DNA of 64,000 nucleotides from Candidatus Cloacimonadales bacterium. GTDB lineage: Bacteria > Cloacimonadota > Cloacimonadia > Cloacimonadales > JAFGVF01. This document shows, one piece after another, positions 6,001 through 18,000 of the stretch. The position numbers were made by a program. The stretch covers positions 1 to 64,000 of the forward strand of contig CAXXOU010000003.1 of the NCBI GenBank assembly GCA_963677495.2. The letters are read 5' to 3'. Positions within the stretch are counted from its first letter, which is position 1. Each line of letters begins with the position of its first letter.

Positions 6001-9000
6001 CATAGCGACCAAGGGGAGTTGGACTCATAGTGATGTACCTTTGCCATTTTTCGCTATTCGCCCATCTCCCTTTGGTCGCTATTGCGACAGCTTCTGAATG
6101 CATCTTGATAGATAGTATTGTTTAAGAACGTAGATACTATTTTGACTATCGGTTTAAGGGATCTCTAAACTGCATGGAAAAATATTCAAGGAAATTTAAT
6201 AGAGCTTATAAGTATAGCTTGGATATATTGGAACATTAAAAAATCGTAATTATTCAATAAATATATTGACTATTTATAGATCATCTTAGAAAATCACCTT
6301 ATACTGCGATAGAGTGCTTTGATTTTTCTTAGTGAATCTGATTGGAATATTTTCCAAAGGGGATCAGATTAGCATTTCGAAAGCGTTTTCGATATGTTTA
6401 ACAGAGAATTCATTTGACTCTGAATTGTAGTTACATAGAATAATATCAAGATGGATTTCGAAATCTTCATAATGAGGATATCTTTGGATGAAGTCCATTA
6501 CAGCGAGAGATATTTTTCGTTGTTTAGAATAGGAGATAGCTGTTTGTATTTGTTGAAAAGGGGTATTAGTGCGAGTCTTAACTTCGACGACCACTAAGAC
6601 ATCATCTTTTTTGGCAATTAAATCCAACTCTCCATAACGTGAATGAAAATTTTTGAAAAGGATTTGGTATCCCTTGTGGGATAGGTATTTAAGAGAAATG
6701 ATTTCTCCACGGGTGCCTAAGTTGTTTTTCATATAAACCTCAGTACAATAGAAATAGCTTGACTAATTAATTGTCAATCATATTTTATTACTGATAAAGT
6801 CTGATATATATATTAAATAATGGAATAATAATCCCTAGGAGGGGGAATTGATGAAGAAAATTTACCTTATCGTATCTGTAATGTTTTTCATCTGTTCACT
6901 TGTAGCTGCTCCTTTTACATCTTTAGGATCAGCAATTAGAACACCAAACGGCTATGTAGTGCCACATACTCAGTTTACTGGAACTTTCGCAGCGTATACA
7001 CGTGACGATGGAGAAGGCAAACTCGAAAGCAAAATAGTTGGTGCAGTTTCAGGTGGTCTATGGGACAGAGTTGAAGTAGGCGTTGTTTACACAGATGATT
7101 GTGATGGACTTACTTTTGCTAATGCAAAGGTTAAAGTATTTGAAGAAACACCAAAATTCCCAGCGATCTCAATCGGTGTGGATAATATTGGTTCTTCTAT
7201 CAATGAAGATGCTGATGAAATAATTGATGGATCTAGTGATGTTCAAGAGCATAGTTATTACTCACGCTATTTTGAGAAAAATGCGTTTTATGCTGTTGCC
7301 ACAAAATCAACTGTTATCCGTGGATTACCAGTGTTTAGTTACATTGAAACTGTTGCTTCCGTAGGTTTTGGTTCTGAGCAAAAGTACCAAGGTGTTGGAG
7401 AATTATCCGAAGACTTTAGTGGACTATTTGCATCAGTACTTTTCCGCCCAAACAAGTGGTTTGGTGTAATCGGTGAAGTTGATGGTTCAATGGTTAATGC
7501 CGGATTAGACATTAACTATAATGATTTCGCTTTAAGAATGGCTCTAACCGAATTGGATGAGTACTTTAAAGGTGATGAATCATATGACAAACTGAACTTT
7601 ACTTTTGCTCTTTCATATACGTTCAATGATTACGTTAATGAGAGCAAACAACCAAGAGTAGCAAGATCTAACAAAGAAGCTATCCGCGGAACCAGAGTTA
7701 TACAGAATCAGGATCAATTAGGAGAGACTGATGACCTTCTTCAAGAATTAAGAGCTATCAGAGAAAGAAGACAGAAAGCTCAGCAAGAACTTGAAGATAT
7801 CAGAAGAATTCTCGAAGAGTCTGAATAAACACAAACACGCTCAACTTTTGAAGTAGGAAGTAATGAGAAAGATATATTATCTTTTCTTATTAATTTCATT
7901 GTACCTGAGTGTTTCAGCGTATGCTGAGATTAGTGAGAACCAGTTTCAGAGATTAGGTCAGTCTGAACAGATTGAAATCCTTAAACAAGAACTGGAAACT
8001 GAAATAGATTTTGAAGAGCAGGTTGCACGATTGAGTGTAATCGCAAATCGCAAAGTGCAAGTAAAGAGTTTAAACAAAAAGGGTCTTTACGAGCAGATTA
8101 AAGAGCTCTTCAAAGAAGATGAGAAGAGTATAAAGAGCAACCTGGTAGAAAAAGATTTAGCTCATACTATCTTGTATCTTGAAGACCTCAAATTGGCTTA
8201 TAAGAATACAAATGTTGTTAAAGACCAGTTCCTTTATTATGACGCTCTGATTGATTTCCAGAAAAGAGATTACACTAAAGCTCAACTAAAACTTGAAGAT
8301 TTAGTTAGTAAATACACCTCTTCTAACAAATATAAGGCTGCATTGTTTACTTTGCAGAACATTTATATGAAAAGCAGCCAGAATGATAAATTCCTGGTTG
8401 CTTATGAAGATTATGTTTGGGATAAATCAGCATCACAAGAGTATTGGTATGGACAAGCTTTATACAATCAAAATAGGTATTTAGATGCACTAGTAGTTTT
8501 TGAAACATTAACCGGAGACGATAAATTTGGTTTTAGAGCACAGTTCATGTTGGCTCTGATTTCAACATTTACAGAGTCGTTAGAAACCGGTTTAGAGTCA
8601 TTCCTACTGCTAATGCAAGCTCATCCAATTAATACTCCATATTATGAGTATTTACCCCTTAATATTGCACGTATTCAAGCTCAATTAGGAAATATCGAAA
8701 GTGCGACAAGATTCTATAGCCAGTATAATAATATGGTTAGCGAATCGGGGAGCATGACAACAGATGTTAAGTTCGAGATTGCTGTTATGAGTATGAACGC
8801 AGGTGATATAGAGATGGCTAAAGCTCTTCTCGAAGATATACAGGCTAACCCATATGCAAATGAATATTATACTGCTTGTGTTTATTTATTAGCTACTATG
8901 GACTATGACAAGACCTCTTTGGCAGAACAACAAGCAGTTGTGAGTTCTGCAGTAGATTTTGCTAACCTATATTTGGATATCCTTACAAAGAAACATAAGA

Positions 9001-15000: not shown

Positions 15001-18000
15001 CTGAAACGTTCAGTTCAAAGAGCTTTTGACGAAGCATCACTTCAGAAGATTCCTAAAATCGAATCTGGTCTTTTCTGGTTTGAAATCTTAGCTAACATTT
15101 CAACTCTTACCGGTCTTCTTGGTACTATTTACGGTCTTATCTTGGCGTTTAGTGCTCTAGAAGGTAAAGTTGGTTCAGAGCAGCAAGAAGCACTTACTGG
15201 TGGTATTAAAGCTGCGATGGGTACAACAGGTATGGGTCTTATTGTGGCTATTCCAACTACAATTATCCAGGGTGCCCTTAGAAACAGAGCTGAAAAAATC
15301 ATGAATGACATTGATGAATACAGTGTTAAAATGATTAATAAGATTAACGCAAACATTAAGGAATAATAATGGCATATAGACCGTCTCAAAGTAGAAGCAA
15401 CAAAGCTTCTCACTCTACTGATCCGCCAAACCTTGTGCCGATCATGAATCTCTTTTTGACAATCATCCCCATGTTACTTCTCATGGTTGTGTCCGTGCAA
15501 GTAACACTTCTAGCCCTGAATTTCTCAGGTGCTGATGCAGGAGGTTCAGGAGACGGTGGAGGCGGTGACGAAGAAAAGATTTATGCGGTTGATTTAATCA
15601 TTTATAATGATGAGGTCGACGGTAAATTTACCCGCGGAATCGAAATTAAAGAAGAGCTTAATAGTAAAAATAAGTTCATCGATGAATTCGATTATGTAGA
15701 ATTAGATGAATACCTTAATGGAGTTAAGAAAAGGAATCCAGAGCAAGAGACTATCAAGATTACTCCTTATGATAATGTCAAATATGAGCATTTGCTGAGA
15801 GTTATTGATATTTGCAAAATGCCTACTGAAGAAGGCAAAACAAGATTCCCGGACGTTGCATATCAACGTCGTAAACTCGTTCAAATGCAATAGCAGAGGT
15901 GCATATGTTAAGATTAAGAAACTTTGAACTTGAAGAAGATTTTGAAGATGAAGGTTATGCACGTGCTAAAACCCCAAAAGGTAAAGTCAAACAGCTGAAT
16001 ATTACTTCTCTGGTTGATATCCTTACTATTCTACTTGTTTTCCTGATTAAAAATGTGAATATGACTGCTCAGGTTCTTAGCCAACCTAAGGGTCTGGAAT
16101 TTCCTACTACTCTTACTCAAGAGAAGTATGATGAAAGCTCTAATAGAACACTTCTAGTTAAAGTTTATCCGGATAATATTTATGTTGGTACTGATAACAC
16201 TCCTGTTGGTTCAATTGATCAGATAGTTAATGATCAAGCAACAAGAGAAAATCTCAAAATATACCTTGAAGCAGAAGCGGAGACGATTGTGAAAACTAAT
16301 CCTGATTTGTCTCCTCTGTTAATTATTCAAGCAGACTATTCTATTCCATGTCAAATTATAACTGAACTTGTCTATATCGCAGCTAAAGCGAAGTTTTCTA
16401 ATATTTACTTTGCTTCCCAGCACGATGATAACAAAGACAGTGTTCTTGGCATGCCTTCGAAAATTTAGAGGAGAAGATTATGAGTGAAAAAGTATTAAGA
16501 ATGCGCCTCTATTTTCGCGGGAAACAGATTAATTACGCTGCATCCATTGGTAATAAAGAATCATTGATAGCAAACAAAATGTACCTCGGTAACAATAGTG
16601 GTATGTTTTGGCAGATCATAGATCCTAAATTCCCTGATAAACACCTTTTTGTTGTTAAACAAAATAATACCTTCAATATCATGCTGACTAAAAATATGAA
16701 GCTTGATATTAAAAAAGGAGATGACCAGGAATTATCATTGGATGAATTAAAGAAGAAAAACCTTCTTAACGGTAATAAACTTGTACTTTCTCCGGAAACA
16801 AGTGGAACAATTCATCTTAACGATGATTATGAAGTATCTTATAGTTTTGGTAATCCATATGTTCCTACATATACAAAACAGCAAGAAACTATTATTAAAC
16901 AGTATCATCGTTTTGAAGAGTTAACATCAGAAGCACGTTTTACTAGAAATTTCATTATTATTGCAATGATCATTTCTTTTATAGGAATGGCAATATTCAG
17001 TAGAACATATCAACCCCCGATTGTTGAAAATACTCTTGAAAACAGACTTGCAGCTATCAGAGAATCTCAAGCTGCAACTAAATCTCAAATTGGTACTAGT
17101 TTTTCGGATCTTGAGCAAGGAACCGCACAAACTGCCGAAGCTGAAGAAGTACCTGAAGAAGTTGTCGATGAAGGTCCAAAAATTGCAGACATGTCTGCAG
17201 GAGAGAAGAGTGCTGCGGCTGCTGCAATGGCACAATCTTTGCTTGGATTTGATGTTTCAGAGACTCAAGATTTAGTTGAAGTGCAAGGACCTGCATTTGC
17301 TGTAACATCAGAAACAATCGTTGCTGCTGCTGCCGGTGGCGGTGGTGGTGGTAAAGGTAAAGGAAAGGGAAAAGGAAAACCTAAAGGTGGACCTGGTTCC
17401 GGTCCTGGAGTTGGTGGCGGAGCAGGTGGACTAGATAATTCTGCTCAAGTACTTGCATCAGTTGGTGGAGCTTCTCTTATGACTCAATCAGAGCTTAAGG
17501 GTGCTGCATCTGCTATCACTGATCTTTCTCAACTTGCAGGTGGTGGTGCTGCCATTACAGCAGGTAACGTAAAAGTTCTAAGTGGTAAAACAGCTGTTGC
17601 TATGATTGCTAATTTCAAAGCAAGAAATATCAAAGTAGTCACTGAAGAAGGTCCTAAAGAAGATCTTACTCCACAAGCTAAAGGTAACTATGCAAAGATT
17701 GAACGTTTTGTGCAGATGCGTAAAAAACAAATCATTGCATTATATTCCAAAGAAAGACAGATTCAGAACATTTACGGTATTCTCAATGTCACAATTGAGG
17801 TTGATGTGAATGGTAAAATTGTCGAAGCTGGTGTTGAAGGAACAGCAGAGAGCGTATTTACTCCTGATTTCCTTAATAAAGCTAGAGACATTGTACTTGG
17901 TTGGAAGTTCCCTATGAAACTTAAAGAATCTCTTGGTTACGGATTTAAGCTTATGCTTCGTAGCTAAGAAACTAATATTAAAAACAGCTTTGCAATTGCA

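Follow-up and report, generated by a model that had tools for sequence, protein, structure and literature searches.

A stand-alone homologue of the Agl-Glt core complex, with an adjoining outer-membrane barrel gene, in Cloacimonadales

The closest described relatives of the operon analysed here are the Agl-Glt (gliding) and Agl-Nfs (spore-coat glycan transport) systems of Myxococcus xanthus and the core clusters listed by Luciano et al. (2011; PMC3169522) in Geobacter, Gammaproteobacteria, Methylibium and Fibrobacter succinogenes. In PMC3858216, Agl-Nfs is reported to move polysaccharide after export, and the AglQ D28N substitution to inactivate the M. xanthus motor. The F. succinogenes core corresponds to Fisuc_1892-1897, that is, FSU_2397-2403 (Luciano et al., 2011; Raut 2015/2019). 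Its orthologues, which we tied to the core by matching locus tags, were expressed and up 1.2-1.7-fold on cellulose according to PMC6851124, in which the GltC orthologue and an upstream OmpA-family protein are also reported in one complex.

We analysed a stretch of 64,000 nucleotides from a Candidatus Cloacimonadales genome (hereafter, the window). Eight co-directional ORFs on the forward strand, with intergenic gaps of -1 to 34 bp, occupied positions 6851-17967 in the order barrel, gltC, gltD, gltF, aglR, aglQ, aglS, gltG, which confirmed the operon proposed by the survey's finding. We conclude that this operon is a homologue of the Agl-Glt core complex but no gliding machine. The divergent neighbour yraN (UPF0102; 6364-6732, reverse strand) lies outside the machine and is a conserved 5' landmark, found divergently upstream in 18 of the 20 loci reaching that far. 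A terminator-like hairpin (17980-18011), with a stem of 14 bp and T runs on either strand, would end the operon before priA; it is no more than a consensus match, with 8 such sites found versus 5.2 expected in shuffles. The promoter scan gave 40 sites versus 46 expected by chance.

Homology of the operon to the Agl-Glt core is very probable in our judgement. Apart from gltE and the barrel, the gene order is the one published for the core in Geobacter, Gammaproteobacteria and Fibrobacter, in a single cluster with one extra small gene (g28) before aglR, the full set of one TolQ-like and two distinct TolR-like subunits (aglR/aglQ/aglS), a large exported TPR protein for gltD, and a gltG combining FHA, TM, linker and TonB-C parts. 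The operon proteins also matched, by profile bridges, outside operons that score on GltC/E/F/G family models, and the nearest outside relatives of g29 sit in core operons. In the AglR tree, used here for its in-group/out-group split only, as the sub-group labels for gltE presence were partly guessed, Cloacimonadota joined the core group against ExbB/TolQ with support of 92/83, on a long stem. In a quick tree of TolR-like proteins, those in first (30/30) and second position (30/30) formed separate groups (SH-aLRT 97 each), the AglQ clade including g30 and the AglS clade g31, each with Cloacimonadota rows. Both the AglR and the ExbD-family trees hold outside core proteins and not those of M. xanthus itself.

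Within the phylum we compared 21 loci, 20 of them picked for long contigs across families, plus L001. No gltE-type ORF (a TPR lipoprotein after gltD) was present in the operon in any of the 21, and the best NF033758 match in the genome reached 30 bits, against 35-130 bits for 9/9 outside gltE-position proteins. This does not put the operon outside the family as published, since the Fibrobacter member has no gltE listed either. The core assignment of the survey's finding held, on better evidence than it had, given the colinearity, the profile bridges, the g32 match described below and the AglQ and AglS clades, but its label "Myxococcus-type" is misleading: this is a stand-alone core without operonic GltE, without the N-terminal GltI-binding FHA and without detected GltJ, CglB or MglB. 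The placement "far outside" the described groups was likewise overstated, because the Fibrobacter cluster of Luciano et al. (2011) belongs to the FCB superphylum and KSB1 contigs carry the operon. A core in an FCB phylum is not in itself surprising.

The motor consists of an AglR-type ring subunit of the TolQ/ExbB family (g29; 14632-15366) and two axle subunits in AglQ (g30; 15369-15893) and AglS position (g31; 15899-16468). The matches reported earlier for g29 to TolQ (TIGR02796, E 2.6e-19) and for g31 to TolR (E 3e-4) were reproduced exactly. Two ring threonines, T165 and T199, were invariant in 21 orthologues of g29; the site of TolQ E173 was non-acidic in 21/21, and position 151 carried D or E in 20/21. 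Asn27 of g30 aligned to the proton-carrying TolR D23 and ExbD D25 of Escherichia coli, and all 21 orthologues had Asn there, so that the protonatable Asp at the position of AglQ D28 is missing from them. Outside Cloacimonadota, only 12 of 74 AglQ-position proteins had Asp. At the position of g31 Asp40, Asp was found in all 21 orthologues and in 63/63 outside proteins. This division of Asp (AglS) and Asn (AglQ), read from alignments, holds across most family members sampled and is at odds with the essential Myxococcus AglQ D28. Since D28N kills the M. xanthus motor, a natural Asn there demands a mechanism of its own.

The transducer g32 (16480-17967; GltG type) has a single cytoplasmic FHA-like domain, a TM helix (residues 158-176), a Gly/acidic linker and a TonB-C-like tail; it is without the N-terminal FHA predicted to dock on GltI. 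Its profile matched outside GltG-position proteins over the full length (HHalign 99.6%, E 6e-24, 421 columns), and all 15 of these that we scanned matched NF033760 and passed the NF033768 cut-off; no g32 orthologue scanned matched NF033760 directly. Its ESM Atlas neighbours were FHA+TonB_C clusters of Myxococcota/Bdellovibrionota (0.95-0.97). The tail match to NF033768 on which the survey's finding had relied was recovered exactly (E 1.7e-4, 21.7 bits, cut-off 40); we do not regard it as diagnostic, since this genome has two ordinary TonB-type genes that score higher (27.4 and 23.3 bits).

Upstream of the motor lie two periplasmic TPR proteins and a small exported protein. With its TPR matches, g26 (7863-9905; 680 aa) fits gltC in size and place (gltC being an exported TPR protein, about 550-750 aa long, encoded ahead of gltD), and its profile matched GltC-position proteins, 7/9 of which score on NF033756; it matched GltD proteins equally well, and none of 13 orthologues matched NF033756 directly. 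The GltC assignment leans partly on position and size. The large scaffold g27 (9908-14398; 1496 aa) has a signal peptide and its profile matched outside GltD-position genes (E 1e-4 to 1e-23); the NCBIfam scans returned no GltD-named model, hence no direct anchor. For g28 (14398-14616; 72 aa), which carries a signal peptide and stands in GltF position, the profile matched 88-aa proteins (E 2e-5 and 3e-3) that score weakly on NF033764 CglF.

According to its AF2 model (all-beta, pLDDT 83.6), the C-terminal tail of g27 (residues 1130-1496; 13295-14395) is predicted to form two tandem galactose-binding-like jelly-roll modules. It resembled GH2 N-terminal sugar-binding domains (VIA Z 11.4, rmsd 4.2, 132 aligned) and CBM27/35/36 (VIA Z about 8); Foldseek returned CBM51, rhamnosidase 3w5n and a Pleurotus lectin, and there were weak sequence matches to rhamnosidases (E 0.004-0.005). 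GltD would thus end in sugar-binding-like modules of CBM67/GH2-N-like fold. Six GltD proteins of KSB1 type carry CBM-like modules as well. Conservation of the tail is low (27% mean column identity), and its length ranges between about 160 and 480 residues.

The first gene, g25 (6851-7828; 325 aa), encodes an outer-membrane beta-barrel, putatively of YjbH type, with a signal peptide and a conserved C-terminal helix. Its AF2 model (mean pLDDT 72) showed 12 barrel strands and a helix at 294-325, and the fold matched the COG4313 channel (VIA Z 16.8, rmsd 3.6, 187 aligned), KdgM (Z 15.9) and FapF (Z 15.2). Structures of GltA/B/H were not among these matches, which excludes nothing. Pfam YjbH (PF06082), described by Pfam as an exopolysaccharide biosynthesis protein, was found in 9 of 20 orthologues at E <=0.05 (best 3e-6) and not in the window's own g25; the ESM Atlas neighbours were YjbH clusters (0.94). 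A complex prediction for g26 with g25 (score 0.21, mark 0.32) speaks neither for nor against their contact.

Of 232 phylum genomes, 168 (72%) had a match to g32; the earlier count was 45 of 61. The window's gene order was kept in 166 of the matches and not in the other 2. A weak match, in G170 (E 4.9e-4), corresponds to the secreted fragment of the motor-less variant described below. The order TPR-aglR-aglQ-aglS-gltG was kept in 21/21 loci, the barrel gene lay directly upstream of the TPR genes in 20/21, a small ORF in g28 position was found in 20/21, and the two TPR genes were joined in 8/21, a fusion that had been noted before in some relatives. Vertical inheritance, as proposed, is plausible in view of the single copy in nearly all genomes and the position of yraN. 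The operon is near-universal in Cloacimonadales, in single copy and at a stable site between yraN and often priA, which is the pattern of a housekeeping system. Families f13 and f14, f17 for the most part and some of f12 (our numbering) are without it, and it is therefore dispensable for the phylum. A protein search with g29 gave at least 120 matches of no less than 47% identity; those bearing names were either Cloacimonadota or generic. With g32 as the sole query, the named genomes yielded two close relatives only. No match came from plasmids, which were searched with g29 and with an orthologue of g30. Two weak loci were seen on viral contigs.

We tentatively favour the reading that this stand-alone FCB-type core is a proton-driven, envelope-spanning puller of the TolA/TonB kind, acting at the barrel on a glycan of the cell's own envelope, and not a gliding engine. 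The machine probably works on the cell's own envelope and possibly on a sugar polymer. By homology and the AlphaFold model published for the Myxococcus complex, a g30/g31 heterodimer would be ringed by five g29 subunits; following the same model, g32 would bind this ring by its TM helix and by the one FHA-like domain, which lies close to the membrane, its long linker would cross the wall, and the TonB-C tail, clamped by g28, would grip the g27/g26 TPR scaffold. With a protonatable Asp only on g31, we infer one proton site on the axle instead of two. The protein g26 would sit below the g25 barrel, and since the g27 tail may hold a glycan, the motor could move, tension or feed that glycan at the barrel, by analogy with Agl-Nfs and the spore-coat polymer. 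Both parts added to the published core, the YjbH-type barrel, whose best fold matches include 12-stranded sugar porins, and the CBM-like GltD modules, point to glycans. Against this, a jelly-roll fold alone is no proof of sugar binding, the tail is poorly conserved, the YjbH matches are weak, no glycan synthesis or export genes are among the annotated operon neighbours, and a motor-less lineage keeps the rest intact; we also count against this reading the AglR tree support of only 92/83, the family gaps and the Asn at the AglQ site.

Another reading, which we hold unlikely, is that the operon replaces Tol-Pal, the motor pulling the barrel via the TPR scaffold and thereby tethering or invaginating the outer membrane at division, while the tail binds peptidoglycan or nothing specific. 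The published model likens GltG to TolA, TolB over the TIGR02800 cut-off was found in 0/232 genomes, and no Pal over cut-off was found in the window's own genome (E. coli and Caulobacter controls passed); the Bacteroides control, however, also failed the TolB cut-off. We had considered a mutual exclusion of the operon and TolB, but genomes without the operon lack TolB too, and there is no complementary pattern. In one clade of six genomes, aglRQS are lost while the barrel, GltC, GltD, GltF and a secreted GltG tail are kept, and the GltD tail is replaced by repeats passing the YbgF/CpoB cut-off (198-213 bits versus 90). This match, which would suit a Tol-Pal role, is generic, because GltD proteins of motor-bearing outside operons pass it too. 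Four outside operons have genes for peptidoglycan enzymes upstream.

An energised importer, in which the TonB-like GltG would draw oligosaccharides from outside through the small barrel and on to the periplasmic jelly-roll modules, seems to us equally unlikely. The best fold matches of g25 include 12-stranded oligogalacturonate and sialic-acid porins, and Raut 2019 interpreted the Fibrobacter cluster, which is up on cellulose, as importing cellodextrins by a TonB/ExbBD system. These Fibrobacter changes are small (1.2-1.7-fold), the 12-stranded barrel is without a plug domain of the TonB-receptor kind, no glycosidase or sugar transporter was seen in the operon, and ExbB/ExbD sets occur at three further places in the genome, two of them with TonB-type genes.

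Surface gliding driven as in Myxococcus is very improbable, even with the motor and four Glt core proteins being homologous: a Roadblock (MglB-type) domain was found in 1/232 genomes (positive controls present), GltJ and CglB were unmatched in the 99.5%-complete own genome in searches run without a positive control, the GltI-docking FHA is missing from g32, and Luciano et al. (2011; PMC3169522) considered the core alone unlikely to drive motility. A search for GldM was silent everywhere, controls included, and is uninformative. That the locus is no Agl-Glt relative, only an ordinary ExbB-ExbD-ExbD-TonB set chancing to adjoin TPR genes, is in our view highly improbable: such a set (ExbB, two ExbD, a TonB) exists elsewhere in the same genome, no orthologue scanned directly matched NF033760, NF033756 or NF033758, and the NF033768 tail match is non-specific, but the ExbD pair of that other locus groups apart from both Agl clades, g32 matches GltG-type proteins over its full length, and the operon is colinear gene for gene with outside operons scoring on Glt models.

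Returning to the glycan-pulling core, a bolder and as a whole rather unlikely extension is that the majority of Agl-type core motors have a 5:1:1 make-up and one proton site on the axle (AglS Asp, AglQ Asn), and may ratchet or pull instead of turning by alternation of two Asp. In Cloacimonadota this would be a housekeeping device reeling envelope glycan at a YjbH-type barrel; since the motor-less clade keeps barrel, GltC, GltD, GltF and GltG tail, these would be a self-standing outer module, whose job would be ancestral to gliding and spore-coat transport. What the stand-alone core does has been a question since 2011, and the Cloacimonadota version, near-universal in an order lacking Tol-Pal and the gliding polarity module, offers handles on it. 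The motor-less clade is a natural motor knock-out that shows where the motor ends and the outer module begins. The division of Asp and Asn would be a direct test of proton-to-movement coupling in 5:2 motors, because it holds in most of the sampled family and conflicts with AglQ D28, and existing Fibrobacter proteomics already covers an operon orthologous by locus-tag match. Four features are without description in the literature searched, which left most subscription journals outside its scope: the AglQ-site Asn with AglS Asp, on which as on the core in Cloacimonadota these searches found nothing, the GltD jelly-roll tail, the 12-stranded YjbH-type barrel and the motor-less clade.

Compared with known systems, the Fibrobacter core shares the superphylum, the order gltC-gltD-aglR-aglQ-aglS-gltG without listed gltE, and an outer-membrane-annotated gene directly upstream (FSU_2396). 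By published descriptions, that gene is annotated as OmpA family, whereas a 12-stranded barrel of putative YjbH type is found here, and GltG has 308 aa there versus 495 aa with an FHA-like domain here. The core of Geobacter, Gammaproteobacteria and Methylibium (Luciano et al., 2011, Table S3) forms one cluster, gltC-gltD-gltE-(extra gene)-aglR-aglQ-aglS-gltG, with similar sizes (GltC about 550-690 aa; Geobacter GltG 484-505 aa); Cloacimonadota differ by the lack of operonic gltE, the added barrel, a GltD longer by its jelly-roll tail, and the gltC-gltD fusion in those 8 of 21 loci. Common to M. xanthus Agl-Glt/Agl-Nfs and Cloacimonadota are the AglR/Q/S motor, the GltG transducer, the GltC/D scaffold and a GltF-like small protein; in contrast, Cloacimonadota have one FHA instead of two, no detected GltE, GltJ, CglB or MglB, a single barrel for which none of our tests gave a relation to GltA/B/H, and Asn in place of the essential AglQ D28. 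With Tol-Pal (TolQ5R2-TolA) and Ton (ExbB5D2-TonB), finally, the operon shares the 5:2 motor family, the two conserved ring threonines and a single-pass transducer with a TonB-C-like end, but its axle is a predicted heterodimer with one Asp, the TolQ E173/ExbB E176 site is non-acidic, and a large TPR scaffold takes the place of TolB-Pal or of a plugged receptor.

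The operon lies at positions 6851-17967 on the plus strand and consists of eight ORFs, g25 to g32 (325, 680, 1496, 72, 244, 174, 189 and 495 aa, respectively), spaced by -1 to 34 bp and standing in the positions of the barrel, gltC, gltD, gltF, aglR, aglQ, aglS and gltG. Between the operon and priA lies a hairpin (17980-18011) whose stem spans 14 bp and which is accompanied by T runs. The G+C content is 35% for the operon versus 37% for the genome, in which we found one clear orthologue per operon gene. Of 232 Cloacimonadota genomes, 168 had a match to g32, 168 one to the g25 profile (E 1e-25) and 162 one to the g29 profile (E 1e-40), and the profile matches reported earlier for the operon genes gave the same values when re-run. 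The scan of the phylum recovered no operon in families f13 (0/9) and f14 (0/6), in most of f17 and in part of f12. The core order TPR gene(s)-aglR-aglQ-aglS-gltG was constant throughout 21 related loci, namely L001 and 20 others selected across families for their long contigs, confirming the constant order claimed by the survey's finding. The barrel gene lay ahead of the core in 20 of these loci, the small gene of g28 type was present in 20, and 8 had fused TPR genes; among the 20 loci long enough to show the upstream stretch, 18 had a divergent yraN there. The operon is genuine and well conserved, an FCB-type variant of a system already known.

Beyond yraN, most Cloacimonadales loci (e.g., L035:1530-7396) carry dnaE, then one or two exported proteins, with a GWxTD domain in both that were scanned; in the window, genes for PEGA-domain proteins and for an adenylate/guanylate cyclase (50-5946) occupy the usual place of dnaE. 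In G223, a genome from another order, a 943-aa carboxypeptidase-regulatory/SdrD-like protein stands at the usual barrel place (L041:6802-9633), and a barrel match is present elsewhere in the genome. A 765-aa VWA/YfbK-type exported protein without a CglB match is encoded 11 kb downstream of the operon (28943-31240).

Membership of the Agl-Glt core is supported by four lines: gene order, bridging loci, the alignment of g32, and trees. The match of g32 to the AgmX/PglI tail model NF033768, previously taken as a sign of Agl-Glt, proved not to be diagnostic because it is exceeded by two ordinary TonB-type genes in this genome (27.4 and 23.3 bits vs. 21.7 for g32). The GltG, GltC, and GltE models had no direct match among the Cloacimonadota orthologues scanned. 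The bridges are 80 metagenome loci from beyond the phylum, fetched with 26 proteins that share a motif and were selected from the closest relatives that the g29 profile has outside the phylum; two of ten clusters of these closest relatives are named Myxococcales and Deltaproteobacteria. Profiles built from Cloacimonadota only matched the same-position genes of the outside loci. Among the outside proteins scanned, all 15 at the gltG position matched the GltG model NF033760 (E 1e-11 to 4e-54, all below its cut-off of 650 bits) and passed the cut-off of NF033768, 7 of 9 at the gltC position matched NF033756 (GltC), 9 of 9 at the gltE position matched NF033758 (GltE), and both small proteins weakly matched NF033764 (CglF). 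Aligned by HHalign with 19 outside GltG-position proteins, g32 matched along its full length (99.6%, E 6e-24), and the ESM Atlas places it next to Myxococcota and Bdellovibrionota FHA/TonB_C clusters. The weakest assignment is that of g26 as a putative GltC, since its profile matches GltD proteins equally well.

In a quick tree of TolR-like proteins from 10 Cloacimonadota and 20 outside loci, the AglQ-position (30/30) and AglS-position (30/30) proteins formed two separate groups (SH-aLRT 97 each), both apart from E. coli TolR and ExbD and from the four other ExbD genes of the genome. In the AglR tree, where Cloacimonadota sit at the end of a long stem, 61 core-type rows split from 9 ExbB/TolQ rows (92/83, unstarred). 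As the outside loci were chosen for their likeness to the query and M. xanthus proteins were absent from the trees, these results provide bridges rather than a direct tree.

Two outside loci exhibit a rearranged core (L101:448-11093 and L123:633-10602), in which the TPR genes come after aglRQS and a GltG of 773-818 aa, a long form that has an N-terminal FHA in L101. In several outside core operons, a gene of 410-500 aa follows gltG (L059:13808-15106, L071:3705-4934); two of the three scanned match Pfam BBP2_2 (putative beta-barrel porin 2), and cores with such a gene may use a different barrel. In four outside operons (L055:1-978, L086:363-1988, L104:77-1015, L116:254-1168), gltC is closely preceded by peptidoglycan-acting genes, namely two S13 carboxypeptidases, an amidase-like protein, and an M23 peptidase. 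An aspartyl-tRNA-synthetase-like gene follows the operon of one KSB1 locus (L094:13891-15690), and a gene similar in size and start occupies that place in several other KSB1-type loci.

At the first TolR-like position, Asn27 of g30 aligns with E. coli TolR D23 and ExbD D25; it is Asn in 21/21 orthologues, whose helix has no other acidic residue. Asp40 of g31, at the second position, is Asp in 21/21. In the outside loci, the AglQ-position residue was N in 51 of 74 (D 12, S 8, G 2, A 1) and the AglS-position residue D in 63/63, counts that come from related loci and are not independent, the remaining loci of the 80 having given no AglQ/AglS match, mostly from contig ends. In M. xanthus, the aglQ D28N change abolishes function (PMC3858216), a review assigns the Asp to AglQ and AglS alike (PMC9389320), and an AlphaFold model described in PMC11761067 has AglR5 surrounding an AglQ/AglS heterodimer. 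If the latter arrangement applies here, Asn27 and Asp40 would yield an axle with one proton site. Our literature search found no paper on such a split between an AglQ Asn and an AglS Asp. The threonine and E173 sites of TolQ matter for function; g29 retains the two threonines common to TolQ and ExbB, and its E173 site is non-acidic in 21/21 orthologues. Residue 151 of g29 (14632-15366), where the second ring helix begins, is D/E in 20/21 Cloacimonadota AglR vs. 0/80 outside, and is a possible second proton site. Elsewhere in the genome (G000), a MotA/MotB-like pair, the second with an OmpA-type domain, is followed by genes of 279 and 848 aa (G000:C3:420482-422719). A second ExbB with two ExbD and a TonB (L136, G000:C1:211705-223560) lies between 1028-aa and 1023-aa genes, with a 343-aa exported protein after it; we take this ExbB-ExbD-ExbD-TonB set to resemble a Bacteroidota-style Ton operon.

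The predicted fold of g25 is a 12-stranded barrel with a C-terminal helix, best matched by a COG4313 channel (Z 16.8), KdgM (15.9), VhGalP (15.3), and FapF (15.2); Pfam YjbH was weakly matched by 9 of 20 orthologues, and the Atlas agrees. A shorter relative of this barrel (259 aa, E 7e-7) is located among lipoprotein genes (G000:C4:535667-536446). Residues 1130-1496 of g27 are predicted to fold into two jelly-roll modules (pLDDT 83.6) that resemble GH2 N-terminal sugar-binding domains (Z 11.4) and also CBM27/35/36/51, rhamnosidase accessory domains, and a fungal lectin. Among orthologues, this tail measures between about 160 and 480 residues, and six KSB1-type GltD proteins carry it as well. 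Via the bridges, the match of g32 to GltG begins only at about profile position 190. In the published model, as described in PMC11761067, GltG residues 190-329 form a membrane-proximal FHA touching AglR and the N-terminal FHA docks on GltI; from these positions we infer that g32 has the motor-binding FHA without the scaffold-binding one.

Six genomes from two genera of family f12 (G163, G170-G174) carry a motor-less operon, in which barrel-gltC-gltD-gltF is followed by a 254-258 aa GltG-tail protein directly before priA, aglRQS being absent between (L141:6684-15231 and L150:3970-12520, for example; the G171 contig begins inside gltC, its barrel being known from the g25 profile scan alone). A g29 match at E 1e-40 is absent from all six, and in the five tested the g31 profile gave weak ExbD-type matches or nothing. 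The 254-258 aa protein has a signal-peptide-like start, its match to GltG is confined to the C-terminal part of the latter (profile E 2e-20 to 4e-15), and the motor-less GltD has no jelly-roll tail and ends in YbgF/CpoB-like repeats. Five motor-less GltC sequences formed a single clade (100/100), sister to motor-bearing f12 (80/89), so that the motor-less state would represent one event, most simply loss. The GltG-tail protein is full length throughout this clade at 49-84% identity, which suggests that it is under selection. In G171, gltD appears as two ORFs of 1010 and 484 aa (L154:1883-6382), a frameshift or an assembly error. Three further genomes (G137, G167, G169) have a barrel match and no gltC match.

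Our best reading of the function, tentatively held, is a puller acting at the barrel on one of the envelope glycans of the cell itself. A substitute for Tol-Pal is doubtful: the absence of canonical TolB from 232/232 phylum genomes and of Pal from the genome under study leaves room for it, but the TolB absence gives no complementary pattern with the operon. Glycan import, to which we give little credence, is how the authors of PMC6851124 and PMC4619616 read Fibrobacter FSU_2396-2403, expressed there and up 1.2-1.7-fold on cellulose, in the passages concerned (an import system plus a surface complex); the identity of this locus with the Agl-Glt core is drawn here by locus tag and does not figure in those passages. 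In the sources covered, functional data on any FCB orthologue are limited to these proteomics. Against import, three further ExbB/ExbD sets in the genome are there for ordinary Ton transport. Surface gliding is very unlikely, since an MglB-type domain occurs in 1/232 phylum genomes, the genome under study (99.5% complete) has no GltJ or CglB match in searches without positive control, and Luciano 2011 argue against motility driven by the core on its own (PMC3169522). That the operon is an unrelated Ton set is scarcely credible.

Fibrobacter belongs to the same superphylum as Cloacimonadota. The operon had been placed far outside the groups where the core was described, a view we abandon since the 2011 paper already includes a Fibrobacter core and KSB1-named loci carry the core too; three metagenome core loci without gltE fall in clusters named KSB1 and a fourth in one named KSB1 and Caldithrix. 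The taxonomic surprise is small. Our literature search found no paper on the core in Cloacimonadota. What makes the operon valuable is the putative axle with a single Asp, the additions that point to glycans, and the clade without the motor. The relevant entries of Table S3 of Luciano 2011 (PMC3169522) give the order gltC-gltD-gltE-(gap)-aglR-aglQ-aglS-gltG in Geobacter, Methylibium, and Gammaproteobacteria, and gltC (746 aa)-gltD (1292)-aglR-(1895)-aglS-gltG (308) in Fibrobacter, for which gltE is unlisted. This published gene order supports the membership of the Cloacimonadota operon in the same core.
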